DNA of 64,000 nt, the filler included, from Hausera hauseri (lineage: Eukaryota): NCBI GenBank assembly GCA_046269625.1. It is 11 parts of 11 records of this genome, joined end to end, with 100 filler letters (N's around TTAATTAATTAA, not from the genome) between each part and the next. Parts side by side here need not be neighbours in the genome. Positions count along the whole stretch, not along the records: positions 19,130 to 24,293 come from JBJURY010317606.1; positions 24,394 to 31,049 come from JBJURY010077772.1; 9 more parts are not named here. One strand, written 5' to 3'. The stretch's first letter is position 1, and the number at the start of each line of letters is the position of its first letter. Of this stretch, positions 21,484 to 59,702 are shown in pieces. The notes under the pieces were generated by a model, which worked only from the letters and a program-made list of their open reading frames with translations, was not told where the DNA came from and made no database searches. The position numbers were made by a program, and so were the translations under genes.

Positions 21484-23375
21484 ACCCTTGATTTGGACAG
21501 ATGAAGATGAACGCCTGACGTTTGCAGCCACCGATGAATGTTACCTGTGCCACCACAAAATATTGTCGGAATGGCTCATACCGGATCACGACCATTTTAC
21601 CCGGTCGATACTTTGGAGCAGCATGCAACGCATGCAATTTGGCAAGACGGGTGTGCCCATTCTTGCCGGTGATATTTCATAACTTCAAGGGTCATGACCG
21701 TCATCATATTCTAAAATGGGCCATAAACGGATTTCGCAATGGGAGCTATCCATAATCCCAACGACGATGGAGAACTACCTGTCCCTATCGACACGCATAA
21801 ACCGGTTTCAGGTACGGTTTTTTGACTCATTGCAGTTCCTCAGTGAGTCTATAACAAAGCTCGTAAATGCCTTGTCCCATGTGCCGCTAACACTGACGCA
21901 GTTCCCCACACATATTGCACGCAGCAAAGGCATATGACCTTGCCGTGCCATATGAGTGACCACGGACAACAGAGGAATTACCGCCGCGTTGGATAGGTAT
22001 CACGGAAGATGAATATCAGAGATCACAGGAATCTTGGACAGAACTCGGTTGTAGAAACATGTTGAACTACATGCTTCAGTATCTAAAGCTCGATGTGTAC
22101 CTATTAGCCGATGTGTTTCAGGCATTTCGGGCTAAAGCGTTGGAGGAAGATAGGTTGGAACCGCTCAACTTTTACTCAGTATCGGAAATGAGTTGGCCCT
22201 CTGCACTAATGTCAGTGTATTGGTGCATTGAGCTGCTACAAGACCCGGGAATGTACCAACTTTTTCACGTTGGCATTCGTAGCGGCATGACATTTGTCAA
22301 CAAGCATCACGTAACCAGTGATGACGAAGATAATACAACGTCAATGTTGTACATCGATATTAATAACCTGTACGGCTGGGCGCTTTCGCAACCCTTGCGG
22401 TACGATTAATTTGAATGGATAATGGACAAACAAGAACTGGATACATTGCTGAACAGACTGCCAGCAGAAAACATGACAGAAAGCAACTCAGTCGGCTACC
22501 TAATGGGCGTTAATCTCGAGAAACGAGCTGCAGCTTGTACAAAGTTCGAAAAGGACTAATACAAGCTCAAAAACAATTAACTTTACGGGAAAACAGTGGA
22601 AAATCTAAAGATTCGGCTCAATGTGCTCCTGTGCAACAACAAAAAATGACTGGTTACGTACACCAGCAAGTCTCAGTTCAGGCGGTCAACGCACATTGCC
22701 GATGGATTGGTCACCGTGCTTCTAAACCGGGAAGAAGTCGTATTGGACCAACCAAGCTACATCGGATAAGCGGTATTGGACCTGAGCAAGTTGCAAATGT
22801 ACAAGCTCCAATATTGCGACTTGGTACGTTACCGGCAAATGTTCGGCGGCCGCGGCGGCGGTAGCTGTGAGATCAATATCGTTGCCGGTGACACAAACAG
22901 CTTCTTCTTTGAGCTGAAAAACATCAGTCGAGACCAGCTGCTCTGACAAATGATGTCAGATAGACTACTGGACACGTCCAACTACCCACCGGACCATCCA
23001 TTGTACAGCAGCGTGATAATAAACAAAATCGGCTACTTCAAGGGAGAAAGTGAAGGCCGGGTTCAATACAGCTAATGGATATTTTTGCGCCCAAAATGTT
23101 ACAGTCTTCTGACAGAATGTGTGACGAAAGTGCGGGCAAAAGGCATCCAGCTGAAACAGACGGAAATAAATCACGGTGATTATCGCCGTATCTATGATGG
23201 ACAAGAAGACGGAGAAGGAAGAAAGGCTGTTGTGTCTCAAACGACCATACGATCGATTAAGCACCAGCTGTATACCATTACAAATAAAAAGGTTGGTTTG
23301 TCATGCAACGATGACAAGCGAAAGTGGGTGGGGCAAAATAAGAGTTGGGCGTACGGACATTGGCGTTTGAGATAA
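21484..23375 (+). pseudogene. Polinton/Maverick-like protein-primed DNA polymerase B with N-terminal endonuclease VII-like zinc motif
   Basis: CYLC..DHDHFTGRYFGAACNACN, FHNFKGHD, FFDSLQFL, YLKLDVYLLADVF, YIDINNLYG, KLKNNxLYGK, GDTNS, LDTSNYPPDHPL, LRPKCYS, AKG, DDKR, AYGHW; stops and frameshifts. Confidence 0.9.
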
Positions 23376-24110: not shown

Positions 24111-26945
24111 AAAAGTAAAAATGAAATGGACTTACTGCAACCTGGCACAATTGAACTGTCGTTGTTGTTGTAGATGCTGTTGTTTTGTGCAGACATTTTA
24201 GAGACAAAGTGAAATAAAAAGACATCCATATTTATATCAACTTTTGTTTTCATTGTAAACAATAGACATTTACTTTGTAAGTATTGTCTCATANNNNNNN
24301 NNNNNNNNNNNNNNNNNNNNNNNNNNNNNNNNNNNNNTTAATTAATTAANNNNNNNNNNNNNNNNNNNNNNNNNNNNNNNNNNNNNNNNNNNNGATATTC
24401 CTCCTTTAATGGAGATGATAAAAATTGCCTTTGTCGAAAACCGACGATGTGCGGACTTAGAGAGCCGCATAAAAATGGAAAATGAAAAAAGGTCACAGAT
24501 CAACAGTTTGAGAAATCGAATTATGTTTATAAATAATGAAGAAACCAAATATATAATAAAACCTTGTATCATAGAATTCGACGAATATAAGGATGAGCTC
24601 AATTATGTTAGTCAATTCATGAACTTCATAAAAGGCCCAGACTACGAATTGAAAGATGCCTACAAGATATTAGACAAAATGATATTAGCCATGCCAATAA
24701 TCGCCAATCGATTGTCAGAATGGTCCGAATTAATAACGAGATTAAGTAAATTAGTAGAACGTAAGAAAGAATTTCCGGAAAGCGAACCATCGGTAAAAAA
24801 GCAACTGGGAGAGGGTGCACGTAACTTAACCACCATACAAGCAGAAATTGGCATCCGGACATGGTTCGAAGCAAATTTTATGAAGAAGAAACAAGAAAAG
24901 ACAACCTTAGAAGAAATATATAAAATGACTGAAGGGACAAACTTCACGGAAAAGCAGAATATGACTTTCAATCTGTACTCAAGGTTAAGAAGTCTTCGAC
25001 GAGAGGGAATCCAATACTTAACAGACAGATATATCGACGAGATTTCAATCCAGGATACCGAAACCTTGGATATTTGTCCGGGAGATAGAGTAGCCCTAAT
25101 AGAAGCAGTAAGATTCTTGCATAAACCACAAGAATGGATAGCTGGTACTGATTAGAACTGTTACACCGAATTGACGAAAATAAGAAACAACCAACGTCTT
25201 AGTGCTGAAAAATTTAATTTCGTAAAGATATTGCTGGATGCGATGGACCCCGACTCAAAAATTATAAATAAGATGTATGGACTAGCCTACTTATTGGTAG
25301 AAATGGTGGAGATTAATGATGAAAGGATGAGGCAATTAATGCCCAAAATACAACAAGTTGAAGAAACATGCATCAGAACGAAACAAAGAACAACGAGGCT
25401 AAATGAACTAGTAAGAGTTTGAAGGCTACCGGAACAAATACGCTTTTACGGAATCAGAAATTAAAAATAAGCGAGAATTTGTACAAAGATGGCAGAGATG
25501 TGGTTATTAAGCTGACCGACTATCACCAAAAGGAATTCATCAATTCTAACGAGTTAGGCGAATTACTGAAAAGGATTCAATATGCCTGCGGAAATGGAAT
25601 AGGATTACGAACTACACAAATGAAAGAAATACAACCAAAATTGAGAGAAATTTGAGAAAATGTGCAAAAAACAAACACAGCTCTAGTAGACTATGGACTC
25701 CCAGATATTGGGAATAAACCGGAATGGAATGCTTATTTAGAAGAAATAACGGCCGAAAACCTGATAACTCCAATACATCTAAATAAAACAGAAATGTATC
25801 CGCAGGACAGGAAATTCAATGTGGAGATGCTCCTAGACTCAGCACTAACCGAAAAGAATCTGATCGAACTAATTAACGTAAACATGTCTGAAAATAAGCT
25901 AAGACAACTTATTCCGACCTTGACTAAATTAGCTAGCGAATACGATTTAAAGCGCGGTGCCGAAACTTCTGATGAAGAAATATGCGAATATTTTGAGAGC
26001 CCAACCCGAGATAACGATGAAGGTAATGCTATCATCCGAGTGGATGGAAGAAAATGAATGTGAGTTAACTACTTATTCCTACGTAAAGGACGTAAGAGTG
26101 GTTATTAGATAATGGCGGAACAAATGAGCTAATCTACCGATTTTACTTTAGAGAAAGAATACTCGACGATTTAGAACAGTTAATAGATGTCGGAATTATC
26201 CCCGTCGAAACAAATCTCATAATAGTAACAATAGCCAATGAACAGACGAAAGAAGAAGCCACGCGAAAGGCTAAAACGGAACAATGTGTAGGACAAATCA
26301 TGGGAGTACGAGATTCGGCAATGTATTTCGAGTATTTACAGACGGATGAAGACAAGGAACAATACGACAAGAATCTAGTACCGCTAGGTGGAATGCCAAC
26401 CAATGTTCCAAGGCCAAAACGTCCGGTCGGTAGACCTAGGAAAGTCCTAGAAGTTGACTATAACGGAGAATCAATTAGAGAACTGAGACAAATTTCAATC
26501 CCCGCCTGTAGCACAGACAATAAAGAATTAAACGAGTTAATGAAGGATTTAATACGGATTGTGAATTATTCCAATCTCCGAGAAGATACATTAGATGACA
26601 AAGAAAAAGCAATATTCAATGCAGCCAGGACAATGAGAAGTTCGCGTTTCAAACTATCAAAAAGTAGCCTAACTGACGACGCATTAGTTGAAATGATGGT
26701 GGAGAATACGATAGAAGAGCTGAAAAAAGTATTATTGTACTTGGCAATTAAGACAAATCCAAATCGGGAAGATGAACTAAATCGAGATACACGTTTCGCG
26801 CGAAAAGCGTCTAGAAAACTTCCGTGAAGTAAATTGGCCAAAACTGTTTGACAAGGAAGAAAACAAGAATAGTAATAATGGACTCGGAGGCATCATACGG
26901 AACCTGATAACGACAGATAACAACAACCGAAAGAATGATTCTAAC

Positions 26946-28980
26946 TGGTTAATCAGTTTGCTCACTATAATGATGCTAATAAAACAGATGGATGTTGTCA
27001 CTGTCTACGATTGCGGTAGACTTAAGTTAGGACAAAAATACTCATTAATGGACTTAGAAGCGTGTAAAGATGCTAGACCACATAAATTGGAAACAAAGGA
27101 GAAGAATTATTTCCTATACCAACAAGAGTTGATATCTTTGGATGGCATGGAATGTATGCTGAGACAATCTCGCAACATTTTCCACTGTTTACTTATGAAC
27201 GGACATTCTTCAATAATCAAACCAACAACCCATCCGATTCCAATGAATTTGGAAAGACAGCATTGAAAGCAGGCCCGAGAGACCGGAAGATTGAAATGGG
27301 ATAGTATGGAACTAGAAAGGCAGCCCCGAAAGATAATTAGAGCATACAAAATAGTAGTTGGAAGGTTAGATATGCATAACGGGCACTGTAGTGGAGCAGA
27401 ATGACACCGGAAAAGGACTAGAAGCAAACGTAGTAATAGTGGACTTTTACAAATCGGAAATGCGAGTCCAGAAAGTGATGTTCCATAGCGTCACTAAGCT
27501 ATATACAGAGAATCAAAAATGCCACATGCAAGACGGGACCTGCGCTTTCAGAAGTTCTGTCGTCATATGGGAACCACCCGCAGGAAAAGGCTGTAATTTT
27601 ATTAAGATTAAGGAACTAAAATTTATTGAAACTACCGGAAAACAATACGTAGATAAATCCGACATCAGATCAAGAGCACGAGAAGACGTATCAGAGCACC
27701 ATACACCTACGATATTAATCTCGGATCAACACGGGTTAAAATTCATAAAAAAAGAAATGATTTCACGCTGCGAAGTAGTAAAGTTCACCACTAACTACAA
27801 AGTGTTCTTCGTCGCAGAAACGGAGATAAACGCAAAAACACAACTTAGAAACGCAAGATATTAGAGTTGAGAATTATCTAAAAAACCGAGACGATTATTT
27901 TTATTATAAAGGACAAGTCGGGATAGCCGAGCTATATCACAAAATGATAAATAATGACTGCAAAGTAGATACGAAAATTATGAGAACAAAATTAGCCCTC
28001 ATTTATGCAAACCCGGAATTAGCCTCACCAATTATTCCCATGAGAAAAGGAATTTTTGGTCGAGTTACTGGTGAAGTTCTGTTGACCTAAGAATGCGAAA
28101 AAAGAGACGTACCGATCAATGTCGAAGAAAAACGATGAATACAAGAGCTCCCTGTAATCTACCAAAATACTCCACGTCTAGCCATGCCCCTCACTAGTGT
28201 TGCTTGATAATGCAACACAACCAACCATCTTAAAGGATTGTAAAGCAAATCTGGGTGAACCAATTGGGTTAGCTTACCTAATGGAGGTATCACTATAATT
28301 CCTAAAAAACTAACTCGAACAAATTTAGCAAAAGGAATAACTGATGATAAGTTTCAGAATATATCAAAAAGGTATTTACAGGCCTAAAGAAATCGAAGCT
28401 TTCTGACAATTCCTTGCCTTTCCACGACAACGAACACACGAATTAAATCGGGCTATGGCATCAGTAGTTGATGACACTCGATATCAGGCTAAATGGGAAT
28501 CCTTACTTGGTGCAAACCATTACCAACGGGTGATCACAGAAATACTACAAAATATGGGGAAGGTTTTTAATTTTTGGACAAGCTGCATCTGGATTTTTAG
28601 CAATCTGTTTCTTGGTACAACTAATAAAAACAGTAATCCAAGCGGTTATAAATGGGTACGAAATATTCACGCTAACAGGATTTTCCTGCAAGATTTTGAC
28701 CGCAATTATCACCCCGTTTGGTAAAATGCTTAAAGTATACGAAGAAAATCGATGGAAAAATGACGTTAAACGCCATGTCGGCTACTATAATTATAAACGA
28801 CGAGCAAGACCCACATTACTAAAACACAAAGCTAAGAAACCAGCAACACGAAGAAATGACTCCCATGATGACGAGCCTAAGGGAGGAGAAGCAATCCTCA
28901 AACAAAATAGACAAAATGTATTTAGTAATCAAAGCACCTTTGCCTATTATGCCGCCAACGGCTCCAATATACGAAGATTG
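26946..28980 (+). pseudogene. Envelope glycoprotein, chuvirus-like (class III fusogen), copy 1
   Basis: Hydrophobic signal, then VYDC..YSL..C..YQQ..C..FHC..GHSS..ETG, Cys-rich ectodomain, TM region ~28570-28720, cytoplasmic tail. Confidence 0.75.
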
Positions 28981-29389
28981 TAATAGAACATCTATGGTGT
29001 CATAGAAATAGGATTTCTGTCGAGGACCTTTTAGCTATGAGGACCCTTATGAAGGAACAAAACAATACGGAGTGTGAAAAATCAAATCACTAATCAACGA
29101 CGAGCGGAAGATGATCATAGGATATTGTACTCACCGAGAATAGTTCGTAATAGAGACAAGATCGACAGTCTGGGGAACTCAAGGAATGAAATCGCTCCAA
29201 AACCAAATAATACAAGAACCATCAATTAGAAACAACGCAGGTAACGTAGCAATCAACGACTTATACCCTAACGAAGAACTGAAACAGTTGACCGAGAATA
29301 TCATATCATCACCAGAAATAACGATAAACGGACATAAAATTTCTTCAATTAAACGACCAAAGAACGTGTCAAGTTGTTATGGAACAGTT

Positions 29390-29750
29390 ATGGAAGGGAG
29401 ACCTTTCACGAAGGTTACCATAGAAGATTGGGAAGTTTATGCCTTAATCGACACAGGATCGGAAAAAACGTTTATCAAATTAGAATCAATACCGCCGATA
29501 TTACGGAAACAATTACAGCCAGCGTCATCATCAGACCCGGGGAGTATAGGAGCCTTCGGGCAAGAATCCAAACTGAAATTTAAATGGAGTCCTGTAGTTC
29601 AATTAATGGGCCAAATCTTTCGACACGAATTCGCCGTAATGGAGCAACTAACTGATGACTTAGTATTAGGATGTGACATGCTGAAACAATTACCTAATAT
29701 CGCAATAAATTTACAGACTGGGAAACTACTTGAACTCGGACCAGTGAAAG
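29390..29750 (+). CDS. Retropepsin aspartic protease domain
   Basis: GRPFTKVTIEDWEVYALIDTGS..DLVLGCDMLKQL. Confidence 0.9.
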
Positions 29751-30254
29751 GGATTAAAACAATGAAAGAAAGCAAGGAGCAGTATGGATTCCCGTCGACG
29801 AAAATATTCCGCCAAGAAGCGAAATGCTAATTTACGCTCAAATCCGCGAAGAGGACGACCAACTAGTATATTTTGAGCCACAAGACGTTAACCCAAATAT
29901 CATACTTAGTAATATTTTGATAAGAGTAACGAAAGGAAGAGTGCCAATCAGATTAGTAAATAACGCACCAACTCCTGTAAAGTTGTACGCAAATACTACA
30001 TTGGGTCATACTTATAAGGTGTCAGCAATAACAATTGAAGAAAAGCCATATAAATATGCTGAATTTCCACCTCATGTCGAAACGGAATTTTCACCAGAAG
30101 CATATTGTCAATTTTATGAATTATTACGTAAATATAAGTCGATCATCGTCCAAAATGAAGAAAATATAGATAGAGCAAAAACCTTAAAGTTAACTATATC
30201 ATTGAAAAAGAAACCCGGCTCAAATGATGAAATAGATTTAGAAGAGCAAAAGAT

Positions 30255-30910
30255 GCCAAAATGGTACCCACCGCCTCATTCCTTAAGGCCCGAAATAACA
30301 AAAGAGGTAGAACGTATGTTGAAAGCCGACATAATACGACCAAGTTATCGATCTTGGTACTCACTAATACTCATGGTCAAGACAAAAGGTACCACTAAAC
30401 ATCGATTCTGTATAGATTAAAAAGCCCTAAATACGCTTATGATGAAAGATTCATTTCCGCTACCGTCAGTAAAAGAAGCTCTAGACAGATTATCGAGAGC
30501 AAAATGGTTTACCACACTGGATTTACAATCCGGATACTGGCAAGTAGAAATTGAAGATGATCGTTATAAAACGGCATTCAAGGCACATGATGGACTGTAT
30601 GAATTGAATGTCATGCCGTTGGGTATAACAACTGGCTCAGCTATCTTCACAAGAATGATGAATAAAATGCTAATGGGACTCGATCATGCGTTCGCATATT
30701 TAGACGATGTAATGATAGCATCAAGGACAGAAGAGGAACACTTAAAGGACATCGAAGACACTCTTATGCGGTTGGAACAAGCAGGATTGAAACTGAACCC
30801 AAAAAAATGTAAATGGGCTCAAAATGCTGTATCTTATCTCGGACATATAGTCGGAGAAGGAGGGTCAAAACCAGATAAATCTTTACTAAACAAAATATCG
30901 GATTGTATGT
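30255..30910 (+). pseudogene. Gypsy reverse transcriptase domain
   Basis: RFCID*KALN, DSFPLP, LDLQSGYWQV, KTAF, MPLG, AYLDDVMI, KCKW..YLGH. Confidence 0.92.
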
Positions 30911-31149
30911 GTGAGGAGGAATTCAGGCAGCCAATATAAAGTGAGGAAATTCATAAGAGGAGGAAAATAAGGTTCATTTACTGATTGAATTGAGTGAAAT
31001 GTTATATCAACTTTTACAATAAAAACCTTATGGAAAATTCTACTTTACANNNNNNNNNNNNNNNNNNNNNNNNNNNNNNNNNNNNNNNNNNNNTTAATTA
31101 ATTAANNNNNNNNNNNNNNNNNNNNNNNNNNNNNNNNNNNNNNNNNNNN

Positions 31150-32545
31150 AAATTATGTATTTGTTATACCTTTGACAACGAAAACAACAAAACTATGCTT
31201 CAACTTAATTAGCACAATTAATCCATTCAACCATAAATGGTGTCAGAAAAATTCGTGGCAATCGGATGTGGATATTATCAACAAGGTAATGTTAGTATTC
31301 CTATCCAGTTTAAATTTTAAAAATTATTACAATATTTTTAAGTTTGTATCTACTAATCCTCATATTTTCCTTTTGTTCCATGTTGTTGTACATAGCCGCA
31401 TTATCGCTTTTGTCTTCATTTAACGCGCCAGAGTACATTGATTTTATAACGTCAAAGGACTACATGGAGTCGTGGAATTTGAAAATCGACGCAGAACCAT
31501 TGACTTTAAGTGTAAGAGATGTAAACCCGTATAATGTATCATTTGGCGGGCGAGTCATTAATACGAAAGCGAAGCATGATCGGAAGTTTGGTCAAGTTCG
31601 ATTCGATGTTACCAGAGGTACTAATCATAGAATTGTGGTTATTGTCGCTGAAACAAATTCAAACCATTTTACAAAATTTATTGAAGATGTTCAGAGAGAT
31701 TATCAAATTGGGAGTTAGTTCTTCGGTCGAAATACTTATTTCCTGTCGAAGCAATGAAATTGCAGACGTTTTAAGCGAGCAAATCTAGGTTAATAAAATC
31801 CATATTGCGTTGATATTTAATAATGATGACAGAGCTTACAGTCGAGTTAAAGCTTTCACCATTAACACAAGTTTGTTGACTCAGTGTGTCACCCATAGAA
31901 ATGGCACTAATCGTGATAAGCGAAAACGTAAGGTTGTTGCTGATAAAACCGTAATGCAAATGTTTGCTAAAATTAGTTATAATCCGTGGGGCATTGATTT
32001 AAAACTTAGTCTGACTTTTTGTTTGTTTAGACACATTCCACAGTAAGACTGGTAGGAGATCGGTTTAATCTTCAGTTTTTCCTACCAGTACAAAGTTCAC
32101 TCAATATATTAGCTTCGTTAATATGACTAAGGACAAAATTGAATACCACGATTCGTTGAACGGAAATTTCGCAGCGACAATTAAGTGTTTAAAAGATAAG
32201 TTTAACATTTTGCTTCAAAGGTACATGATCTGTCATGATGATGCTGGCGATTCTCCGTCGTATTTTATCAAACTGCATAAAACTGAAGCAGTTTTAAAGA
32301 TTATTGAAAATATCTATGAGGGTGAAAACTTGCCGGAGATTATTTTTGTTGTCGTTAAAAAGCGTATTAGTGTGAAGTTCTTCAAAGATGGTGGAAATGC
32401 AAATGCTGGGACACTTGTCGATGAGAGGATAGTCAAGCCGCATTATTATGAGTTTTATTTGGTGTCTAAAAACACAACAAAGGGTACTGCATCGCCTATC
32501 AATTATAATGTTTTGATGAATACTATGTTAGAATTACAAAAATAT
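31150..32545 (+). pseudogene. piwi: Piwi-clade Argonaute fragment (MID-PIWI), decayed and 3'-truncated
   Basis: LTQCV..QMFAKISYNPWGI, IIFVVVKKRISVKFF, GTLVDERIVKPHYYEFYLVS, GTASPINYNVL; stops and frameshifts. Confidence 0.85.
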
Positions 32546-32559
32546 TGTACCCTTACCTT

Positions 32560-35500
32560 TCTTACCAAAGACGTCGAAGAACCAATTCCGCATAATCTTA
32601 GAAAATCATTGCATGCGGCGAATTCGGTCACCCCAAAGTTTGAGATTCGCTGCGGCGAGGCTGAACGTTTGGCCTCCCACCCTATACCATTGGGCCAGAT
32701 GGAACCGTTTGCCGACGCTTCACGACACGCCCATGGCTACACGATCACACCGTATTCCCTCTTCTTTTTTTAAATAACAAACATTTTTACACAACGGCAT
32801 TAACGCACTTAAACACTGCAGCTATCTACAACGTCATCTCCACTTTTCTTTGATCATCTGACTTTTACATCACGCACAATGGCTGCACAGTACCTATCGC
32901 CGGAACCCTACAATCTTTTTGAACTTATACCCATCTCCACATACACTTCCGCATCCGTGATGGCATAAATTTGTCGCCAACCATCGACACAACGGATAAA
33001 ACCGCCTCGAAACCAAAATCTGTTAAACGGCTTCAAAAATCCACCCCTACCTCTGCCAATAATTTTTCACATGCTACACCTTCCACTCCTTTCCCTCACT
33101 GCACCGAATTCTTTACTGACAACCAAGGCTTCAGCAAAACTTGGTTGCAATTCCACCAATTGTGGCTACAAGCAAACAATATCACCGATTCCTTAACCAA
33201 ACCACACAATCTACTCTTCTTACTCCCTAACAACATTGAAACACAAATTCACAACATTCGCGAAATCTTTGAACTTCCTGACCCATATTCACAACTTTCA
33301 ATGGTGTTCTCTAGATCACAGAACTCTCAGTGGACGCGATCATACAACGCTTCTTTCACGACAATGCTACAGGCACACAACGACCATCAGACCTTTTACG
33401 CACCTCTTTAGCACATCTATAAACCCTTGGCGTCACTAAGAGCACAATCCAGAACTACTGCGCCACTACTTCCTCAACGCGTTACCCATCCAAATTCGGA
33501 TCCTACTTACCATGGTGCAGAACTCCACGGCTTTTGAGAAATTGGCCGAATTAGCCGATAGAACACACGACATCCTACACTTAAATTCCCCACCAGTCGT
33601 TTCGGCGGCAGTTGCCACTACCAGTATACAAAACAACAATACATCAATAGAGTAACAACTAAGTCAGTTACGTGCCAAAAATACAGCACTACAAGCAACA
33701 ATTAACAATATAAACAACAAATTAAACGAACTTTCCCTGTCCCGGCGAAGGGATTTTGTTGCTGACCGCGCCCATTCTGCATCTAAAAACCGGTCACCAT
33801 CGCCTGCGCGGTCATCTATTTGCTACAACCACAGCATATTCAATAAGAATGCCAAGAAATGCTGCCTAGGGTGCAAATTTTATAATAAAAGTTTTTCTTC
33901 ATACATCGTTGTTTGCATTTACCATGCAAAGTTTTAAAATCAAGCCCGTAAATGCATTCCAGGCTGCACTTTCAAACCAGATACGAACGACGGACGTGCT
34001 ACCTTTTCTTATAATAGCCGTCCTAGTTCACCTTTTCAAAAAAACTAAATTTTCCACCAGAAGTCACGGAAACTCTGGGAAAGACACTACTACACTTTCT
34101 GAATGCCGACACGCCTCCTTCGCTGTTTTTACTATAAAGGCTGCAATCGCTGCTGCTACAACGCAATCCGTTGATTTCCTCATTGATACAGGTGCAGCAA
34201 TTTCTTTATTACTACAAACCTTTCCTGTACAAAATTCACCATTCAGAATTAAACCCTTGTACACCGCTTCAGGTCAATCGCTGCACATTTCTGGCATGTC
34301 TAAGCTATCTTTTATTATACCAAAATTTCCTTCACCTTTGCACTGGACGTACGCAGTTGCTAACGTCCAGACGGCAATCCTAGGGTCTGATTTTCTATCG
34401 CATTAGGACTTATTGGTTGACTGGAATCAACGATGTCTGAAGAGCAGCATCACTGGCAGCATTGCTGAGCATATCAATAGCATTTCGACTACTGCGCAAT
34501 CGATAGAGACGCGGAGATCAATTTTGAGAAAACCAAAAACTACTTTGAATTTTCCTAATATTTTACTCCGTAAATTTTTAAATAATAATACTGATATTCA
34601 ATCGAAGTTCAACGTCGCTAATTGTGGTACTGTCACCAACCTTAATTCACTCGACGAAATTACTTCATAAAACACCATTTTTAATTCGACTATCTTACAC
34701 CAAATACCACTTGACTGCACATTATTAAACCATTTGCAAATCGCATCCGCTACTACTCAAGCTGTTTTACCATCACAGTTGCTTATAACTTTACAGCAAT
34801 TCGTTACCACATTATGTCCACGAGTACTTAAAAAAGATCGTTCGTTTACCCCTGAAAACAGCACTGTACATGACATAATTACACATCATCAACGATCAAT
34901 ACGCCAGAAGGTACGACCACTGTCATGTCGTCGTAGACAGGCCGTAGAAACCGAATTTCTTGAACTTGAACACTCCGGCATTGTATGCCGTTCCAAATCT
35001 CTTTGGTTGTCAACTTTACACGTTGTACAAAAAGGACGGCACTTTTAGACCATGCGGTGACTACATACAGTTGAACAATTTGACCGCCATGGATGCGTAC
35101 CCATTACCACTTATCAGGGATATCTTGCATCGCCTTAATTCAACTATCATTTATTCGACTATCGATTTTGCCAAAGCATACCACCAAATACCGGTGGCAC
35201 GGGAAGATATAGAAAAAACTGCTGTCACTACTCCTTTTGGCCTCTACAAGTACCTGTTTATGCCTTTCGGTTTGCGAAATTCTGCACAGACCTTTCAGCG
35301 ACATATTGATTCGATTCTCTCAGATTTCCCGTTTGCGCACCCTTACATTGATGATATTCTGATCGTTTCGTCTTCCGTCAAACAACACGAGAAACACCTT
35401 CGCGCAATATTCCAACGCCTTGACCATCATAATCTCCAAGTCAATTTTGACAAATGCCATTTCTTCAAAAAGCGCATCAACTTTTTGGGTCACGTTATTT

Positions 35501-36719: not shown

Positions 36720-36955
36720 NNNNNNNNNNNNNNNNNNNNNNNNNNNNNNNNNNNNNNNNNNNNTTAATTAATTAANNNNNNNNNNNNNNNNNNNNNNNNN
36801 NNNNNNNNNNNNNNNNNNNCGAAATCCCCAATCTAGGTAAAGAAACCATCATGCACTGGACATTAGTCCCCGTGAATTACGACCCTAGAAAAAGTTTGAT
36901 CAATACTTAACAAAACGAATTATATGGTTATCTGTACTCCGACCAAGATGGTTTA

Positions 36956-37367: not shown

Positions 37368-38209
37368 TGTTACAGAGTGTGAATGCTATAGTATATTGCT
37401 ATGGAATGTAAATACTATAAAGTAATATGGTAGCAATTATTTGGTATGTATACAGATAAATTGGAATATTTAACAATTAATCGGAATTGATAATGATGTA
37501 ACTATGATTACATAGTTAATTGATGATAGAAAATTGATAAAAATGCACGACAGTTAATTATCAGTCGAAATAATGAAATGAAAATATGTAAATAATCAAG
37601 TGAAAATGACGTAATCGTAAAAACAGTATAGTATATATAGCGACGGATTTCAGTAGTAAGGGACACAGAAATTTTGGAATTGATCTCCAGTGCAAGCGAT
37701 TCAAAGCTATTGAAGCGACAAATTCTTCGGAGAAATCAGACGAACTTGGATTAGTATCCAGTACGAAAGAGATACGAAACGATTGATTGACAGATTCGTT
37801 AGTGAATTTAGAAACGAGAGAAATATTGAAATTCGAAAGCAGTTTTCTTGAAATTATTCGACAGTGATCGAAAGGTTCAATGGACGTGATTGTCATCGGT
37901 ATTAATTATATTTTTTGTGTTTAACAGTCTGAAATTTTTTATATAGTTTCCATCGATCCTTAAGATGGATTAGACTACCCTAAGCTTCTAAAATCTAAGT
38001 TACCTTGTATAGTTAGGAGAGAACTACGATTAACTTGACGCATCAGAAACGCACGCAGTACCTGCACGAATTAATATAATTTTCTAATAAAGTCTACAAG
38101 GTACATCCTGATTTGCCGAGAACGGTAAACCGTACCTGCTAAAAATAAATTTACGATAAACTATTGTTAGATAGTGGGAGACGATTAGGGCCCAACCCGA
38201 AATCTAACA
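37368..38209 (+). repeat. LTR (~840 bp)
   Basis: Inverted termini TGTTA...TAACA, preceded by a PPT and followed by a PBS; AATAAA signals inside. Confidence 0.8.
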
Positions 38210-38211
38210 TT

Positions 38212-38228
38212 TGGGGACCCTAGCAGGA
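38212..38228 (+). promoter_or_regulatory. Primer binding site
   Basis: TGGGGACCCTAGCAGGA 2 nt after LTR end, complementary to a tRNA-type 3' end (TCC...CCA); tRNA not identified. Confidence 0.7.
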
Positions 38229-38604: not shown

Positions 38605-41600
38605 ATGGCAGCTGATACGACTCGACAGAAATTAGACATTTTTACGTATGAATCATTGAATCTTCCGGCGTATGAAGGCGATCCAGAAGGGCTAAATGAA
38701 CTTTTGAAGACATAAGCTTCACGCCGAAAGCATAGGGTTAGAACCTCATCAGATGATTAGACGATTATCACTTTATTTGAAGAATTTGGTCTCACATGCC
38801 TACGCCAAGTTGACGGACGAAGAGAAAAGAGATTGGTCGTCATTAGTAGGTGCATTAAATAGGAAATTATTACCGACAGTAACTCCACAACAAAAGTTAA
38901 TGGCATTTCAAAATAGAACGCAACAGCAGGGGGAATCAGTCACCCAGTTTGTGTTTGCTTTAAAGAAGTTGGCAAATAGTTATATTAGTACTCTTAGAAT
39001 TTGAAACATGGCTAAGACAAAAGATGACGCCGAACGTAGAGCCGCGGAAAAGGCAGTTCGCTCAGATTTGGATGTAATGATGACAGCGCAACTAATTAAT
39101 GGTATTTTGTCGAGAGACCTGGTGAAACAACTCATTTTAGCGAGACCAGAAAACTTTGAGAAAACATTACAATTGGCTCAAGACTTAGAAATGGCGTTAG
39201 ACAGATGCTAGGCAGAATGAACGATACGACAAGGACGTCGAACGAAATAAGCGCAGAGATAGAAATAGAAACAGTGGATGATTCAACAAACATAGTCAAA
39301 ATCAAAATTTCGATAATAGGATGGATAAGAATCCGCGTTATGCGAACAAAAGTTTAGACAATAATCGAAATTCAAATAACATGAACGCGAAGTCCAACTA
39401 TAACTCGAACCAAGACGGTTACAAAAACAATAACAGAAGTTTCAAATTCAAAGATGGAAACAGATACAATGATTTTAGAAACAATGAAAACAAATATGGC
39501 GGAAATAGTCGAATAGAATCTTCAAACGCAGGCTATTCTAGGAGCGACAGCCGCTCAAAATCGCATATAAATGAAGACGGTCGACGACGGATTGGTAGAA
39601 ACAGAAACTTAATATGCTATACATGCGGCAAGGAAGGCCACATAGCACGATCATGCCCAAATCCTCCGAGCGTTTCGTTTACCGAACCGACTAAGGCAAT
39701 TATGATTAAGACGCAGGAGGATTTAGAAGCGAAATATGGTCCCAGAGGTAACATAGACGCAATTTTGGATATTCAAGATTCACGACAATACCTGCAAAGT
39801 CAACGAGAAACAAACAATCCGCAAATCTTGAAGGCTCAAAAGGAATATAAAGATAACGTACGGATATTAGAAGTATATCATGGATTAGTTAAACCCCGAA
39901 CAAAATATGAGTACTTAATAGCGCCAGACAATAGTAATATGGTTCGCAAGAAGAACGTGCCTGTAAAGCCCGTAGTGACAGAAGAGGTAAGCAAGGTGGA
40001 AGTAGCAGAGACATCGCCCAGCGTAGACTTGGACGCTGAACCTGAAATCCTGACAAAAGGATGTCAAGATGTGTCTGACGAAATAGAGGTCGCAGTCCAT
40101 CACTTAAAAAGAAGCCAAAAGGTCGATCGAGATCGCCATTAAAAAGAGACAATTTAGAGAAAACTCAAGTCCAAGATGCTGACATAGAGGACATCCAGAA
40201 CTTAGACACTCCGGATGTGAAGCTTACTGAAGTTCCAGATATTCCAAGAACAAGCGTAACAGTAGAAGACGCGAACAGCGAGATAAACGAGATATGTCCA
40301 TTACCCGATAGCGAAGGCGAGACTGATGGCACGGAACGAATTAAAAGGCTAGACGGAAAAGTGTGGAGGATCAGAAAGTCCTGGAAAATTGCAGACAAAT
40401 TAAAAGAAATTAGGATGGCGCTAACAGATACGGAGACGATGCGTCGCAATCTGGAAGAATTAAGATATATAAAAACTCAAGTAGATGTGTCTGGAAAAGA
40501 ACAGAAGTTCGCCAAAAGAATGTATAAAGAATTTAAACGATACATTGAGGGAGATGTTAGCAAGGAGAAAGAACTAGAGGTAGTAGATGAAATTGTGGAG
40601 AAATCAATTGAGGAATGGAAGGAAACTAAATTCATGAATAAAAAGCGGAATCGACTTCACCTAAACATGGAATAATCAAGAGATAGAAATTAAGAGTAAA
40701 GTGGAGACTGCCCAAGGATTACTTAAGACGCTAGAGACGGATCCAAGACAGAAGCGAACAAAACAAAATTTAGAAAAGTTAGTGGTAGAAATAGAGAGCG
40801 CAGTAATCTATCACCTCAAAAATAAACCAATATACGAATTGGATGAAAACAAATTTTAATACTAGGCATAGAACCTGTAGACAATCCTCTCATAATGGAA
40901 ATGTGAAAGATCGAGTTCAACGCACCCAAAGAATATACGGACATAGGAATTCGCATAGCCTCGCAAGATAAAAGGCGCTCCGAAATTTACAGATGTAGGA
41001 ATACAATAACGTATGCAGAAAACCAAGAAGTACAAAACATAACGAAAACATGTATTTTAGAACTGGACGAATACAAGAAGGAAGTTAACTACGTTAAAGG
41101 AGTAATGGACTATATTAAAGGTCCAGACGATAAATTGAACGACGCCTACGAACGATTAGAAAATGTAATAAACGCGAAACCAATGATAGATTACCAACTC
41201 AAAGAATGGATTGAACTGTTAGACAAATTAGTGAGTCTAACAAAATATCGTCTAAGGAAGTATTCAGAACGTGAACCGATATTAAAACAACAGTTAAAGG
41301 AAATACTCCGTAACCTAGATGCTTATAAAATAGAGGCAAACCTTCGAGTTGAAATTAACTCATTATTGAGACTAAAATTTATGATTAGAGATCAGGAAAT
41401 AAAACTCACAGAAGAATTGTATACCATGATCGAAGAAATGGAATTATCGGCAAAACAGGAAAAGATCTCCTCCTTATCGATGAGACTAAAAGATGTCCGC
41501 CTAGAAGGCGCACGACACTTGGCAGCAAGGCCCATAGACAAAATATCCATGTGATTTATCGACGTTGGATATTTGCCCAAATCATCGGATCGCGTTAGAA

Positions 41601-44600
41601 GTATTAAAATATCTACATCGTCCTTTTGAATAGGCATCAGATACCGACCAGAATTGTGACGCTGAATTAACAAAAATAACCAAAGATCATCGCCTCACAC
41701 CGGACGAAGCTAAATTCGTAAAGAGGCTGATTGAAGAAATAGATCCAGATTCAAAGACTCTAAAAAAATGCGCGAAATAATATCACTACTATCGACAATG
41801 GCAGAAATAGATGACAAGACGCGACAATTGACAACTCAAGTTAAAGATATAGGAGAATTGCGAATTCGCACAAAGCAAAGAGCCACGAAGCTAGATAAAT
41901 TAGGCAAAGAATTGAAGACTTATAAGAATAAATATAAGATCACGCAATCAGAGTTAACGAATAAAAGAGAATTCGTACAAAGATGGTTAACGAATGTAAC
42001 GACCAAATTAACAGATTACGAAAGAAAAGGATTGCTTCTTACAGACGAACTAGGACCGACATTAAAAACGATACAACTTGCGTGTGGAAATGGAGTAGAG
42101 TTCCGAACTAACTTGATGAGAGAAGTACAGTTGATATTAAACGAGATACGCGGAAATGTACGAAGAGCGTCCGCAGTATTGTTGGATTATGGATTACCAG
42201 ACATCACAGACGACTCAGGATGGGATGCTTATTTGGAAGATTTGTACAACCAAAACCCAAAAACACCCATCCAACTTCAAGAAATCGATATTCTTCCAAC
42301 AGACCGACGATTTGAACAGACGAAAGATGAGGCTGTAAGGAAAGTGAGAGATGAACATTGCGTAGGACGCATTATGGGAATCCGAGACCCTATAATGTAT
42401 TTTGACTACCTCCAAAGTGAAGAAGATAAGGAACAGTACGATAAGAATCTAGTACCGATAAGCGAAACAATACCAACTGCGCCGAAACAGAAACGACGAG
42501 TTGGAGGGCCGAGGAAAATAAAAGATGATATTAACCAAAGTGCAGCTCTGATACGAGAACTAAGGCAACTATCCATGCCCGCGATTAACTCCGATAGCGA
42601 AGAATTAAACGAGTTGCTGAGAAACATTATAAAAATAGTGAACTATTAGGGACCAAGAAACGAGATGTTAAACGAAAAAGAAAAAGCAATATACGACGCA
42701 GCAAGGATAATGAGAACATTTCGGTTCAAAATGAACAAAAGCAACTTACCTGATGAAGTTTTAATCGAAAAAATTATGGTAGAGAATACTAAGGAAGAAT
42801 TAATGAAAGTAATATTGTACTTGGCAATTAAAACAAATCCCTTAAAGGAAAATGAATTCAATAAAACCATTGGATTGATCAGAAAAGCTGCTAGGAAGAT
42901 ACCTAGAGAGATAAATTGGTCCAAGCTATTTGTCGACGAAAATGGAAATAGGCCGACCACTAGAATTGAAGGTGTGGTAAGAAAATTAATACCAACTAAC
43001 TCAGCGCAAGATAGTAAATCAATTTGGATGATTAAACTAGTAACACTTATAATGTTAATAAGACAGCTCGGTGCAGTCACAATATGACTGCGACAAGTTT
43101 AAGGTCGGACAAAGATATTCCTTGATGGATCTGGAACTATGCGAAGACGCCCGACCTCACAAGTTAGTAACTATTAAGAAAAGGTATTTCTTGTACCAAC
43201 AACGCGAACTAATCGCAATAGATGTGATAGAGTGTATGTTACGACAATCGCGAAGCATTTTCCACTGTGGAAATATGCACGAACATTCGTCAATCATAAA
43301 ACCAACAACTCCGCTGATTCCTATGGATTTATAACGACAACAATGCAAACCAGCCAAGGAAACAGGAAGATTGAGATGGGATGGGATGGAGTTAGAAGCT
43401 CACCAGGAAAGATAATTCGGGTGTATAAAGTAGCAATTGGGAAATTAAACATGCACACCGGATATTGTAAAGGAGGTGAATACGATACAGGAAAAGGAGA
43501 AGCGGGAATAGTGGTGGTTGATTTCTGAGACAGAAATGAGAAACCAAAAGGTGATGTTCCATAGTGTTACAAAAACATACAGAAAATCAGAAGTGTTATA
43601 TCCAGGATGGTGCCTGTACTTTCCGAAATTCGATAGTTATTTGGACTCCGCCACTTATGAACGATTGTAACTTTGTTAAAATAAGAGATAAATTTCAACG
43701 AAACCACGGGAAAACGATATGTAGACACAACCGACAATAATGCCAGGTCAATGAAGGACGTCGCTGAACAGTTTATACCCACGATACTGATCTCCAAAGA
43801 TCACGGATTGAAGTTCATTAAGAAGCAAATGCTTTCCCGATGTAATGTAGTAATGTACGCCACCAATTACGAAGCATTCTTGGTAGCAGAAGCGGCAATA
43901 ACTACTTTTGCTTTGGAAGCACAAGATGTAAGAATAGAAGATTATTTGAAGAATAGAGATGATTACTTTTATTACAAAGGACAAATTGGACTAGCAGAAT
44001 TATACCACAAGATGATCGCAAACGACTGTAAATTAGATATAGAAATTATAAGAACCAAACTAGCCTTAATATATGCAAATCCAGAACTAGCATCACCTGT
44101 AATTCCAATAAAAAAGGCATTTTCGGAAGAGCTACCGGAGAAGCCCAATTAACTTACGAATGTGAAAAACGAAATGTATCCATAAACGTAGAGGAAAAAC
44201 GTTGTATTCAAGAATTACCAGTCATATATCAGAACGTACCTCGATTGGCTATGCCACTTACAAGAGTTTTGCTAGAAAACTCGACTCAGCCAACACTTTT
44301 GAAAGAATGCAAAGCAGGTTTAGGCGAACCTATGTTTAAGAGAAGTGAGACAGATTGGGTAAGTCTGCCAAATGGAAGAGTAATAGCTATGCCTGGCAAA
44401 TCAACTGGAACAAATTTGTTAGAAGGAATAACCGACGATACGTTCGCCGACACTGCAGTAAAGGGATTTACAGACCAAAGGAAATCGAAGCTTTCAGACA
44501 ATTTCTAGCCTTCCCTCGACAGCGTACACATGAGCTAAATAGAGCCATGTCAACGGTGATGGATGACACTCGCTATAAAGCAAAATGGGAATTCCTACTT

Positions 44601-44837
44601 GGCGTCAATCATTATCAGAGTCACTACAGAAATACTATATAAAATTTGGGAAAGATTTTTAATTTTCGGACAAGCTGCATCAGGATTTTTAGCCATCTAC
44701 TTCTTGGTACAACTCGTAAAGGCTATAATTCAATCCATCATAAATGGCTATGAAATATTAACTCTAACCGGATTTTCATGCAAAATTTTGACCGCGATCA
44801 TAACACCGTTTGGAAAATTTCTGAAGGCTTACGAAGA
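38605..44837 (+). mobile_element. Ty3/Gypsy element copy 2: gag (capsid + CCHC) - coiled coil - glycoprotein
   Basis: Gag capsid motif FQNRTQQQGESVTQF, knuckle CYTCGKEGHIARSC, long helical region homologous to copy 1, glycoprotein from ~43025. Confidence 0.9.
43025..44837 (+). pseudogene. Envelope glycoprotein, chuvirus-like, copy 2
   Basis: Signal WMIKLVTLIMLIRQLGAV, YDC..YSLMDLELC..FHCGNMHEHSS, NDCKLD, TM GQAASGFLAIYFLVQLVK. Confidence 0.75.
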
Positions 44838-55064: not shown

Positions 55065-58000
55065 GATTCTGGGGTTCCATGCAATCCGATATTTTATTTA
55101 GCAATGATTTATCCGGCTTTGATCCTCCTTCTCCGACTGTGTCCAAGATAAACACAGCATTTTGAGCCAATTTGCATTTCTTAGGATTCAGCTTCAATCC
55201 AGCATGCTCCAATCTCATGAGGGTACCTTCAATATCCTTTAAATGACCCTCTTCCGTTTTTGACGCAATCATGACGTCATCTAGGTAGGCGAACGCGTGT
55301 TCTAATCCCATTAGCATCTTGTTCATCATGCGGGTAAAGATGGCTGGTCCGGTAGTTATTAAAAATGGCATGACATTAAATTCGTATATACCGTCGTGTG
55401 TCTTAAACGCGGTTTTGTAGCGATCTTCTTCTACTATTTCTACTTGCCAATATCCGTACTGTAAATCAAGTGTGGTGAACCATTTAGCTCCAGAAAGTCT
55501 ATCCAGAGCTTCTTTACCCATGGTAATGGGAAGGAGTCCTTCATCATAAGCGTATTTAACGCTCGATAGTCGATACAAAATTGGTGCTTAGTGGTACCTT
55601 TCTTCTTAACCATGAGTATAGGTGAATACCAAGATCTATAGCTTGGTCTGATTATGTCGGCCTTTAACATTCGTTCAACCTTCTTGATTATCTCTGGCCT
55701 TAACGAGTGTGGAGGAGGTACCATTTTGGCATCTTTTTATCCTCTAAATCTATTTCATCGTTGGACCCAGGCTTTTTCTTAAGTGGGATCATGAGTCTTA
55801 AGGTTTTGGCTTGGCCAATATCTTCTTCATCTTTCGCGATAATCGACCTACAACGACAAAGTAAGTTGTAAAATCGACAATATTATTCCGGTGAAAATTT
55901 AGTATCAACGTGGGGTGGAAATTTGGCACATTTATACATTTTCTCTTCGATAGTAATTGATGATACTCTATAGGTGTGTCCCAAAGTGGTATTGGCATAG
56001 AGTTTGATCGGAGTTGGTGCGTTATTTGATATTCTGATTGGCACGCGACCCGTTGATACTCTTGTCAAAACGTTACTGAACACAATGTTCAGATTAATCG
56101 ATTCCTTCAGCTCAAAATATACTGGCTGGTCGTCATCTTGACCTATTTGAGCGTATATCAATATTTCAGTTCTGGGCGGTATGTTTTCGTCTACGAGAAT
56201 CCAAACTTCTCCAAATTTTCTGTCTTTAGTGGTTTTACCTCCTTTTATTGGACCAAGTTGCATTAATTTCCCTGAATTGAAATCTATCGCGATGTTGGGT
56301 AGTTGTTTCAACAGATCGCATCCCAATACTATGCCATCCGTTTATTGTTCCATTATGGAATATTCATGATGAAAAGATTGTCCCATTATACGAATTTCTG
56401 GTCTCCATCGGAATTTGCTTTTACACGATTGGCCGAAGGCTCCGACACTTCTTGGGTCTGTTGTGGGAGGTGGATATAATTGTTTCCGTAGGAATTGTGG
56501 TATTGAATCATACTTTATCAGCGATATTTCAGATCCTGTATCTATCAGTGCGTAAACTTTCCAATCTTCTAATTGAATTTTTGCGAAGGGCCTACATTTG
56601 ATTATCTTACCGCAATAACTTGGTGCTATTCGGGATTGTCGTATCGTGGACACCTTGTATCCGTTGATGGTAACTTGAGTGGTTCCAACTGGCTGATAGA
56701 TTAATTGTCTTAACTCTCCAATTAGGTAAAGTCCATTATTCGCACCATTCGCATTTTCTATTTCTTGTTTTCTAACTGGCGGCTGGATTCCTTGGTTTCT
56801 AGGATGGTGTGTTTCGCGGCTAACGGTAAACTTTGACTGACTTTCGTTTGGTCTAGGTATTCTAGGTGAATAAATTATACCGTGATCGTGGATCTTACGC
56901 AATATCCCGTGGTGTTTTGTTCCTTTGTAATGATCCTCTAGACTAAACGGTTTTCGATAGGCGTCTGTCTGGCACGAATTCATGGATTGTTTCTCGCAAT
57001 CTTCATATATAGGTGCCGTCGGTGGCAGTATTTGCAATGGCAGTTTTATAACAGATTAGTGTCTGTTCGACTGGGGAATAGCATCTCCTCCCATAGTCTC
57101 GTCATCATCAGAATTATTTCTCCGCGTTTTAATATTTATGAATTTTTGCTTATAGTTGAATATGTGCCTTCTCGTACGGTTCCGATTGTGGTAGCCACAT
57201 GACGTTCTACCTCCGGATTTCAACAACTTTCTTTATAGGCCTTTAAAAATTTGCCGAAGGGTGTATATTAGGTGTGGACTGTTCGGCTACATCTTCTCGC
57301 GTTTTAGAGTTAGTTTCCGTGCTACTTATGTATCGTTTCCCTGTCGTCTCATTAAACTTAAGTTCTTTAATTCTGATGAAATTGCAATCGGCTTAGTTGG
57401 GGATTTCCAAATTACCACGGATCTTCTAAAGGGGCAAATATTATCCTGAACATGTCACTTCTGATTTTCTGTGTAAAGTTTAGTAACGGTATGGAACATT
57501 ACCTTTTGTAGGCGCATCTAGGTTTCGTAAAAATCTACCACTACGACCTTCGACTCTAGCACTTCTCCAGTATCGTATTTTGAGCCATTACAATGTCCAG
57601 TATGCATATCTAGTCCTCGAGCTGCTACTTTATATACCTGATCATCTTTCCTTGTTGCATTTCCAATTCCATGCCATCCCATTTTAATCTTCCCTACTCT
57701 ATAGCTTGCTTACAATGCTGACATTCTAAGTTCATCGGAATCGATGGGGTTGTTGGCTTGATTATCGATGAATGTCCATGTACCAGTCCACAATGGAAAA
57801 TGCTGCGAGATCGTCGCAACATACATTCTATTCCGTCTAATGTAACTAGTTCGCGTTGCTGGTACAACACGTAATTTTTCTTTTTTGTTTATAGTTTATG
57901 TGGTCTCGCATCTTCACACATTTCTAAGTCCATTAATGAATATTTTTGGCCAAGTTTAAATTTGTCGCAGTCGTACACTATAACTGCACCCATTTGCCTT

Positions 58001-59702
58001 ATTAACATAATAACGGTTAAAAAGTTAATTAACCAGTTTGGCTTGTTTCATCTGTTATGTCGGGTTACGTTTCGTAACAAGTATTCAAATCCATTTTTGC
58101 CAAGGAAGGGTCTATTATGACGTTTTTCTTCTTTTTCAAATAATTTGGACCAGTTTATTTCTCGGGGCAGTTTCCTGACAGCCTTCCTTTCCAAGCTAGT
58201 GGTCTTATTAAATTCGCTTTCTCTGACCGGATTGGTTTTAACGGCCAAATATAGCAACACTTTTTTTAATTTCTCGATTATCGTTTCATCGCTTAAGGTG
58301 CTTTTGGATAATTTACATCGAAAATTTTTCATGGCCTTGGCGGCATTAAATATAGCCTTCTCTTTCTCGTCTAGCATACTGCTATCAAGACTGCAGTGGT
58401 TCACTATACGTATTAATTTTTGAGTTCATTCTGCTCTTTGTCATCTACACTGCAGATCGGTATGGACATTTGTCTCAATTNNNNNNNNNNGCTTCTGTTT
58501 TGTTACAGTCGGTGCGGTGCCACTAGTTGGTACTAGATTCTTATCATATTGTTCCTTGTTTTCGTCTGTTTGCAAGTATTCGAAGTACATTGCTGCATCT
58601 CGAACTCTTACAATTCGTCCTACCCATTGTTCAGTCTTCGCCTTCCTGGTGGCCTCTTCTTTTGTTTCGTCGGTTGGAATTTTTAGTACTATCCGGTTTG
58701 CTTCGTCTGGAATAATTCCAACTTCTATTATAATTCCAGTTCGTATAATATTCTTCCTCTAAAATAAAGTCTACAATTCAGCTCATTTGTATGGCCATTA
58801 CTCCTTAACCACTGTGCTACGTCCTTCACAAGGGAACGTGTAGTAAACTCGTGTTCCTTCTCGTTTCTCCAGTCAGACGTTATTCTTACTTTAATAGTCT
58901 CTTCAGGCTTTGTCTTTAAGAATTTAGCATATTCNNNNNNNNNNCTCCACACTGAATCTTTGATCTGCTAGACACGTCTCAGTTTCGTACAAGTGCACGG
59001 GAGTTTTCGGGTTTTCGGCAACTATCGAATTCAGATAAGCATCCCATTCATTTTCATTCTCGGGTAGTCCGAAATCAGTCTCCGGAGTTTCTAACGGCCG
59101 AGCTAAGTTTGCTTCTTTTATTGATTCTCTTAGTCCCGTACTTTTTGTTGCATTATAACCATTTGCGTTGTTCGTAAACAACGTCAGTTTTCGGAAGTTT
59201 GGCGCAATACTGTTAGCAGCTGACATAAATCTTCGGCTGATATAAATTCTTGTTCATGATAATTAGTTAACTCGGAAGCTACGTCTCTTTGACATCTTTG
59301 CACAAATGGTGACTTGTCAGCCTTTTATGCTTTTGTAAGAGCATACTTAGTTTTATACAATTTGAGTTCTTTAGTTAGTTCGTTTAATCTTACCGCTCTC
59401 AGTTTGACTTTAACGAAAGTTTCTTCAACTTGTCGTATCTGCGACAACAACTGTCTTATTTACTCGTCACTAATTTCTGCCATTCCCACCATCAGCAGTG
59501 CTAATTCATGCATCTCATTAATAGTTTTTGAGTCTGGGTCTATTTCATCAAGCAATCTTTTTACAAACTTGGCCTCTTCAAAATTAAAATGGTGGTCATT
59601 CCTTATTTTAGTCAGTTCGGTATGATACCTTTGATCTGTTCCAGCCATCCTTTCTTGTGGGTTGTGTAAGAACGTCATTACTTCTTCGAGGGTCGACTGA
59701 TA
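55065..59702 (-). mobile_element. Ty3/Gypsy element copy 3: coiled coil - UBL - glycoprotein (internally deleted) - PR - RT
   Basis: Colinear with copy 1: IVYDC..FHCGLVHGHSS, LPPTAPIYEDC, ALIDTGS, YLDD. Confidence 0.92.

Follow-up and report, generated by a model that had tools for sequence, protein, structure and literature searches.

Does a retrovirus-like element ever carry its envelope gene (env) inside a gag-env-pol polyprotein, upstream of the protease? The question is raised by a 64,000-nucleotide stretch of Hausera hauseri DNA (GenBank assembly GCA_046269625.1; the whole stretch is called the window here), for which a preliminary description reported three divergent copies of a gypsy-type element sharing the order coiled coil, signal peptide, glycoprotein. 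The window is made of 11 contigs with N44-TTAATTAATTAA-N44 spacers between them; as the contigs are merely joined by these artificial spacers, the three copies represent separate loci. They proved collinear, with pairwise DNA identities of 65 %, 68 % and 62 %, and this collinearity, together with matches to the Pfam family PF24664, bore out the reported order. The contig ends of all three fall before RNase H, integrase and the 3′ long terminal repeat (LTR). A gag capsid with a CCHC knuckle, a retropepsin-type protease (PR), a gypsy-type reverse transcriptase (RT) and the order PR-RT place the elements in Ty3/gypsy (Metaviridae). We consider it very likely that the copies are old, decayed members of a large multicopy Ty3/gypsy family of the Burro/GAG-ENV-POL kind, whose ancestor encoded one polyprotein, and a single gag-env-pol frame is well supported. 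The copies and their parts are as follows, TM denoting the transmembrane segment.

24394-31049, plus strand: copy 1
24394..26940, plus strand: copy 1 spacer, with a coiled coil, a ubiquitin-like-looking stretch, a basic GRPRK motif and the probable Bcl-2-like domain (~26500-26850)
26943..26996, plus strand: copy 1 internal signal-peptide-like segment (by hydropathy)
26997..28650, plus strand: copy 1 putative chuvirus-like class III glycoprotein ectodomain and TM (~28588-28650), with several private frameshifts and stops
28651..29392, plus strand: copy 1 cytoplasmic tail and linker to the protease, with three frame changes
29393..29692, plus strand: copy 1 retropepsin (Pfam RVP, E 3.2e-6)
30265..30909, plus strand: copy 1 Ty3/gypsy RT with YLDD (Pfam RVT_1, E 8e-30), contig end close by
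36820-44837, plus strand: copy 2
38202..38225, plus strand: possible 3′ end of a 5′ LTR (..CTAACA) and TGG-starting primer-binding-like site, 5′ of copy 2 gag
38606..39211, plus strand: copy 2 gag capsid region, with stops and a frameshift inside (Pfam Retrotrans_gag, E 0.0025)
39615..39662, plus strand: copy 2 single CCHC zinc knuckle (Pfam zf-CCHC, E 3.3e-7)
39700..42580, plus strand: copy 2 long spacer from the knuckle to the Bcl-2-like domain, with charged and coiled-coil stretches and several breaks
42581..42937, plus strand: copy 2 probable Bcl-2-like helical domain, directly upstream of the signal peptide
43013..44837, plus strand: copy 2 signal-peptide-like segment, glycoprotein ectodomain and TM (~44686-44742), by PF24664 and hydropathy; contig end follows
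55065-59702, minus strand: copy 3
58050..59702, minus strand: copy 3 spacer, including the probable Bcl-2-like domain (~58425-58140)
57197..58047, minus strand: copy 3 signal-peptide-like segment and partial glycoprotein, ~1 kb of ectodomain gone
55066..57196, minus strand: copy 3 tail, retropepsin (~56593-56285) and RT; reading frame continuous from tail to protease but for one stop

Eight open stretches in the glycoprotein region of copies 1 and 2 were scanned, and six of them matched PF24664 (Monjiviricetes_fusion; E 6e-14 to 3e-4); the copy 1 glycoprotein, with E-values of 5e-7, 3e-7 and 6e-14, is also collinear with two metagenome contigs, L001 and L002. Pfam likewise agreed that gag precedes the glycoprotein in copy 2 and that PR and RT follow it in copies 1 and 3, as first described: gag and knuckle matches were confined to copy 2 among the three, and retropepsin was found in copies 1 and 3, whose RTs are 83 % identical. 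The gag of copy 2 matches that of the related protein P0121 (E 2e-13) and that of L002 (E 2e-8). From gag to RT the copies' family spans ∼2,900–3,000 codons. The copy 2 spacer, ∼0.4 kb shorter than that of copy 1, contains a Nuf2_DHR10-like coiled coil (E 0.003), and between PR and RT lies a conserved stretch of 110 residues (70 % identical between copies), where Burro is described as having a dUTPase-like stretch, for which no Pfam or PDB match was found. We take 38202..38225 for a possible LTR end and primer-binding-like site from its motifs, there being no partner LTR or host tRNA to compare.

Whether one frame or several once ran through these parts was judged by copy-to-copy comparison, without a consensus. 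In total, 38 in-phase stops were flagged; 12 lie in stretches where copy 1 is alone, and all of the other 26 are open in the other copy or copies. None of the 36 frame-changing gaps (2 nt in 14, 1 nt in 12) is identical in two copies, and for each junction between spacer and RT at least one copy keeps the frame. As had been reported, the disruptions at junctions differ from copy to copy. Copy 1 changes frame just 5′ of REVNW and is then open through the hydrophobic segment to YDC (26781-27266), copy 2 shifts just 5′ of YDC, and copy 3 shifts just after its TM and then runs from tail to protease with a single TAA at 57058-57056. The single-nucleotide shift once described between the copy 1 tail and protease, on the other hand, is in fact three frame changes (near 28915, 29075 and 29145). 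Additionally, we used sequencing run X1, possibly the source sample; here copy 1 was covered in 30 of 30 bins by 12,751 contig pieces, most of them at 90–95 % identity. Among the matches listed, other copies differ at two copy 1 stops (at least 6 and at least 16 contigs) and at three copy 1 frameshifts (at least 8, 2 and 3 contigs), whilst for the remaining copy 1 breaks there is no row among those matches.

Ratios of nonsynonymous to synonymous differences (pN/pS) were 0.18–0.21 in the ectodomain, 0.18 in PR-RT and 0.30–0.41 in the spacer, with pS ∼0.8 between copies, such that synonymous sites are near saturation. Saturated pS together with low pN/pS means that all of these parts were coding whilst the lineages diverged, and the ratios indicate that the glycoprotein evolved under purifying selection like pol. 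As judged from sequence comparison, then, env is in frame with pol from spacer to RT; the junction between gag and spacer rests on relatives of the copies.

These relatives were retrieved by phmmer with the copy 3 junction as query (X at stops), which gave 32 matches, known as protein sequences; 15 of them were scanned (the 10 longest and 5 others). PF24664 was present in all 15, with eight continuing into the protease and four into RT, RNase H and integrase; one, P0138, spans knuckle to integrase. L001 and L002, contigs from Joint Genome Institute metagenomes, were examined as DNA. In L002 a single frame of 3,703 codons contains gag, two knuckles, signal peptide, glycoprotein, TM, PR, RT, RNase H and integrase, includes two proteases, and its gag, glycoprotein, PR and RT each find their counterpart in the copies, in the same order. 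In L001 the open frame measures 3,426 codons and extends from 5′ of the glycoprotein to beyond integrase. A structural model of P0121 matches herpesvirus glycoprotein B (gB) and baculovirus GP64 (Foldseek E 3e-6), and a wide fold search with it was taken up by matches to retroviral capsids and gB; a class III fold is thus predicted for this relative. An RT-based search returned generic gypsy proteins, with PF24664 in none of the 17 long matches scanned, and a word-based search with the signal-peptide stretch matched none of 170 candidates. Private breaks, other family copies and unbroken relatives all agree with the one-frame ancestor that was first proposed.

A quick RT tree of 60 rows and 222 columns, from which 13 chimeric Cordylochernes models and lower-scoring rows had been dropped, puts P0015, P0128 and P0123 closest to the copies. 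The copies' group of 12 rows also holds all four glycoprotein-carrying polyproteins, as well as P0015, which has ankyrin repeats after integrase, and five others without env evidence. Two further proteins, P0095 and P0107, are unbroken gag-glycoprotein-pol polyproteins with a Cys-rich glycoprotein between gag and PR and no PF24664 match; their RTs branch apart from the copies, and they would represent a second lineage with env inside. We also observed two to four retropepsin-like domains per polyprotein in P0123, P0125, P0127, P0129, L001 and L002, and in L002 a separate downstream ORF (12085-13473) with a weak exonuclease match (RNase_T, E 0.001).

Fragmented contigs joined by spacers, and the solo chuvirus glycoprotein insertions known in other animals, as far as the consulted part of one study describes them (Dezordi 2020, PMC7642597), could together suggest that a nested viral insertion, or else an artefact of assembly, put the glycoprotein there. 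It sits, however, at the same position in three copies so far diverged (pS ∼0.8) and in distant relatives, it evolved under purifying selection, run X1 covers it evenly, and the search for termini of its own, which the preliminary description had proposed as a check, found none. We regard such an origin as wholly implausible.

Several observations nonetheless weigh against one ancestral frame of this kind. The unbroken relatives are distant from the copies (∼30–37 % identity in env, 45–50 % in RT), similarity between their spacers and those of the copies is almost nil, and the grouping with env-carrying polyproteins in the RT tree is weak (Shimodaira–Hasegawa-like approximate likelihood ratio test value 83). 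Part of the spacer (∼25817-25978) is covered by copy 1 alone, with frame changes inside. Copies 1 and 2 leave the frame a few bases apart near 28367/44458 (permutation P 0.43), and within 20 columns of each other near 28545/44617 (P 0.23). A programmed frameshift near 28367/44458 was considered and rejected, as chance suffices to explain the coincidence and at this point the frame is intact in 10 relatives as well as in L001 and L002. Finally, copy 2 alone contains the gag-spacer junction, with breaks at several places in it, which makes a programmed stop or frameshift after gag possible in the copies' family.

Such a programmed break, by frameshift or read-through stop, would yield Gag in excess and spacer-Env-Pol as a fusion, leaving the gene order unchanged. 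Retroelements usually make Gag in excess, the frame of copy 2 shifts several times from the knuckle to the part in common with copy 1, and slippery-type heptamers are present in this knuckle-spacer region. These heptamers are, however, equally frequent throughout the A-rich copies (20, 21 and 10 per copy), and copy 2 is broken along its whole length. Furthermore, P0121, P0126, P0129, P0138 and L002 are unbroken from gag into the glycoprotein, and Burro ORF1 is single in the review section on it (PMC6431247). As such, a programmed break after gag is quite improbable, and we retain the single gag-env-pol frame.

Insect errantiviruses as a rule splice their env RNA, and env here could likewise be in frame in the DNA yet be expressed chiefly through splicing or from an RNA with an internal start. 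We find this unlikely. Across the 275 columns preceding the cleavage site, a single AG is common to all three copies, with 7–10 pyrimidines in 20 nt, and the sole common in-frame ATG is inside the hydrophobic core, too late to start the signal peptide; spacer and tail are moreover conserved as protein in the same frame. Of the conserved stops, separate starts or splice acceptors that the preliminary description had named as counter-evidence, none was seen: the copies have no stop in common, no ATG placed for a separate env, and no common start codon or good splice acceptor 5′ of the signal peptide.

Upstream of the glycoprotein, a profile built from four relatives aligns with Bcl-xL across BH1-BH2, directly 5′ of the signal peptide (E 0.0086), and P0124 alone gives Pfam Bcl-2 at E 0.001. 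The Bcl-2-like stretch of copy 2 sits at the same position. In a low-confidence model of it (mean predicted local distance difference test score 40), Bcl-2-fold proteins made up seven of the nine top and 15 of the 50 top structural matches; the best Z of 6.4, with root-mean-square deviations of 3.1–3.5 over 84–102 residues, is within the chance range for helical bundles and so weakens this assignment, as does the direct profile link between copies and relatives in this stretch (E 0.065). The GGW motif is absent from the stretch in the copies, and a Pfam scan of the copies themselves gave no Bcl-2 match. On balance, the models and profiles make a Bcl-2-like domain in the spacer, just before the signal peptide, likely. 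A ubiquitin-like stretch, seen by eye in copies 1 (∼25978-26230) and 3, had no match in domain searches; L002 has a weak ubiquitin match at the corresponding place (E 0.018), and that of P0121 (E 0.03) was modelled as helices. The ESM Atlas gave no usable match for the spacers of copy 1 or P0142.

In each of the three copies V/I-x-YDC follows a hydrophobic segment, and the ectodomain ends in a stronger one, whilst most relatives have one signal-like and one TM peak flanking the ectodomain. A weaker hydrophobic stretch after the TM (Kyte–Doolittle ∼1.5) was taken as non-crossing. This hydropathy fits a topology of signal peptide, ectodomain and one strong TM. The polyprotein would then run from Gag (capsid, knuckle) through an accessory spacer with a terminal Bcl-2-like domain to signal peptide, glycoprotein, TM, tail, PR and RT, with RNase H and integrase presumably following beyond the contig ends of the copies. 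The internal signal peptide would direct the ribosome to the endoplasmic reticulum (ER), and signal peptidase would free the glycoprotein N terminus at a small residue before V/I-x-YDC. The ectodomain would be lumenal, the TM would bring the tail and Pol back to the cytosol, and retropepsin would cut out the Gag and Pol proteins, with Gag, Env and Pol made 1:1:1 unless further RNAs exist.

Hydrophobic segments were also noted 3′ of integrase in P0123, P0128, P0132, P0015, L001 and L002, and in P0123, P0128, L001 and L002 a signal-like segment plus TM follows integrase, which suggests a second membrane protein in the polyprotein. Quite tentatively, Burro-like elements might be a widespread clade of retroviruses of alphavirus/flavivirus style, with a polytopic polyprotein: its cleaved signal peptide would tail-anchor the Bcl-2-like domain and uncleaved Gag, coupling ER assembly to apoptosis control, and a second membrane cassette would stand after integrase; we hold this extended scheme to be doubtful as a whole. 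No description of this topology, of signal-peptidase processing or of a signal peptide as Bcl-2 anchor was found in searches of open-access text. The unbroken relatives make the proposed topology, in which Gag and Pol would flank a lumenal glycoprotein at 1:1:1, addressable on natural sequences.

For comparison with known systems the host had to be considered. A CTR9 exon is on another contig of the window:

17162-18229: CTR9 exon

The best 8 of the 120 matches listed are trematodes (64–67 %), followed by molluscs and insects (61–62 %). As its nearest proteins are from flatworms, the host of the element family is probably a flatworm, provided that the contigs share one organism.

The closest published counterparts are the giant planarian gypsy elements Burro/GYPSM1 (Jurka 2007; Grohme 2018; both via Arkhipova and Yushenova 2019, PMC6431247), which we compared by published description and not by sequence. 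In the section of that review devoted to them, Burro has a single ORF with Gag, knuckle(s), an Smc-like coiled coil, Ubi2/SUMO-like and BCL2-like domains, env, then PR and RT; the env is related to mononegavirus fusion proteins and in frame between gag and pol. The same section gives MATH, BIR and ankyrin domains, a ∼5,000-residue ORF, >25 kb of length, a dUTPase-like stretch between PR and RT, and many copies in flatworm hosts with decaying fragments in Dugesia japonica, and it does not discuss signal peptide or topology (PMC6431247). Our copies resemble Burro in the order Gag, knuckle, coiled coil, env, PR and RT, in an env of mononegavirus-like fusion type in frame between gag and pol, the probable flatworm host, the many copies, decay and, with moderate strength, a BCL2-like domain just before env. 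They differ in the knuckles, two or three in Burro versus one in copy 2 (L002 has two), and MATH, BIR or ankyrin domains gave no Pfam match in the open stretches of the copies, whose 3′ half is absent. The copies therefore probably work like Burro and belong to the same broad group; strict membership is weakened by the one knuckle and by the comparison being to a description.

GAG-ENV-POL errantiviruses with env of herpes simplex virus gB type occur in Platyhelminthes, Nematoda and Bryozoa, and include nine flatworm elements, six of them from Schmidtea mediterranea, with up to 215 copies, according to the consulted part of that paper (Chary and Hayashi, eLife RP108449, PMC13524379). They share with our copies a Ty3/gypsy pol and a putative gB-type class III env between gag and pol, and CTR9 points to a host in one of these phyla, assuming one organism. 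They are intact, whereas our copies are decayed, and a single frame and a Bcl-2-like domain are not mentioned in that part. A nematode endogenous retrovirus (NERV) is reported to have a continuous gag-env-pro-pol ORF with a nyamivirus-like glycoprotein. It is similarly cited as a metavirus with env before pol (Sacco et al. 2022, J Gen Virol 103:1739); here, in contrast, the host is apparently a flatworm and there is a long accessory spacer. The Anakin elements of mosquitoes also carry a chuvirus-type glycoprotein in an LTR retrotransposon but are BEL/Pao, not Ty3/gypsy, and embedding of the glycoprotein in gag-pol is not described in the part seen (Dezordi 2020, PMC7642597). The view that env is normally a separate ORF downstream of pol, from which the preliminary description started, therefore stands only with published exceptions (Burro/GYPSM1 and the GAG-ENV-POL errantiviruses), and the novelty it implied for the layout falls away: env inside the polyprotein is already published for Burro, and our copies are a further divergent family, probably of flatworms. 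The unannotated, unbroken metagenome relatives (L001, L002, P0123, P0128, P0132, P0138) indicate that elements with env inside are common beyond Schmidtea.

A gag plus spacer element on the last contig is 35–43 % identical to P0142, in which a glycoprotein of the same type lies downstream of gag and spacer. The element gave no direct match to copy 2; from the P0142 similarity it is probably a more distant, fourth member of the family, truncated where the window ends. RING-finger ORFs lie just 5′ of gag on both gag-bearing contigs and may be accessory to the elements; the review section describes such accessory ORFs upstream in Burro (PMC6431247). These and the other features of the window are listed here.

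60624-64000, plus strand: gag plus spacer element of the last contig
36911-37264, plus strand: RING-finger ORF (C3HC4, E 3e-5)
59805-59978, plus strand: RING-finger ORF (C3HC4_3, E 4e-11)
60340-60573, plus strand: RING-finger ORF (C3HC4_3, E 4e-9)
5520-10051, plus strand: decayed element with two CCCH-like fingers, which by eye we take to be BEL/Pao-like
21960-22406: stretch that by eye looks like a Polinton-type DNA polymerase, with no Pfam match
32069-32773: Piwi-domain fragment (Pfam, E 5e-20)
32923-36719, plus strand: gypsy element without env, on a long branch in the RT tree
~53157-54620: 5′ part related to the 32923-36719 gypsy element
47815-48774: intronless protein kinase

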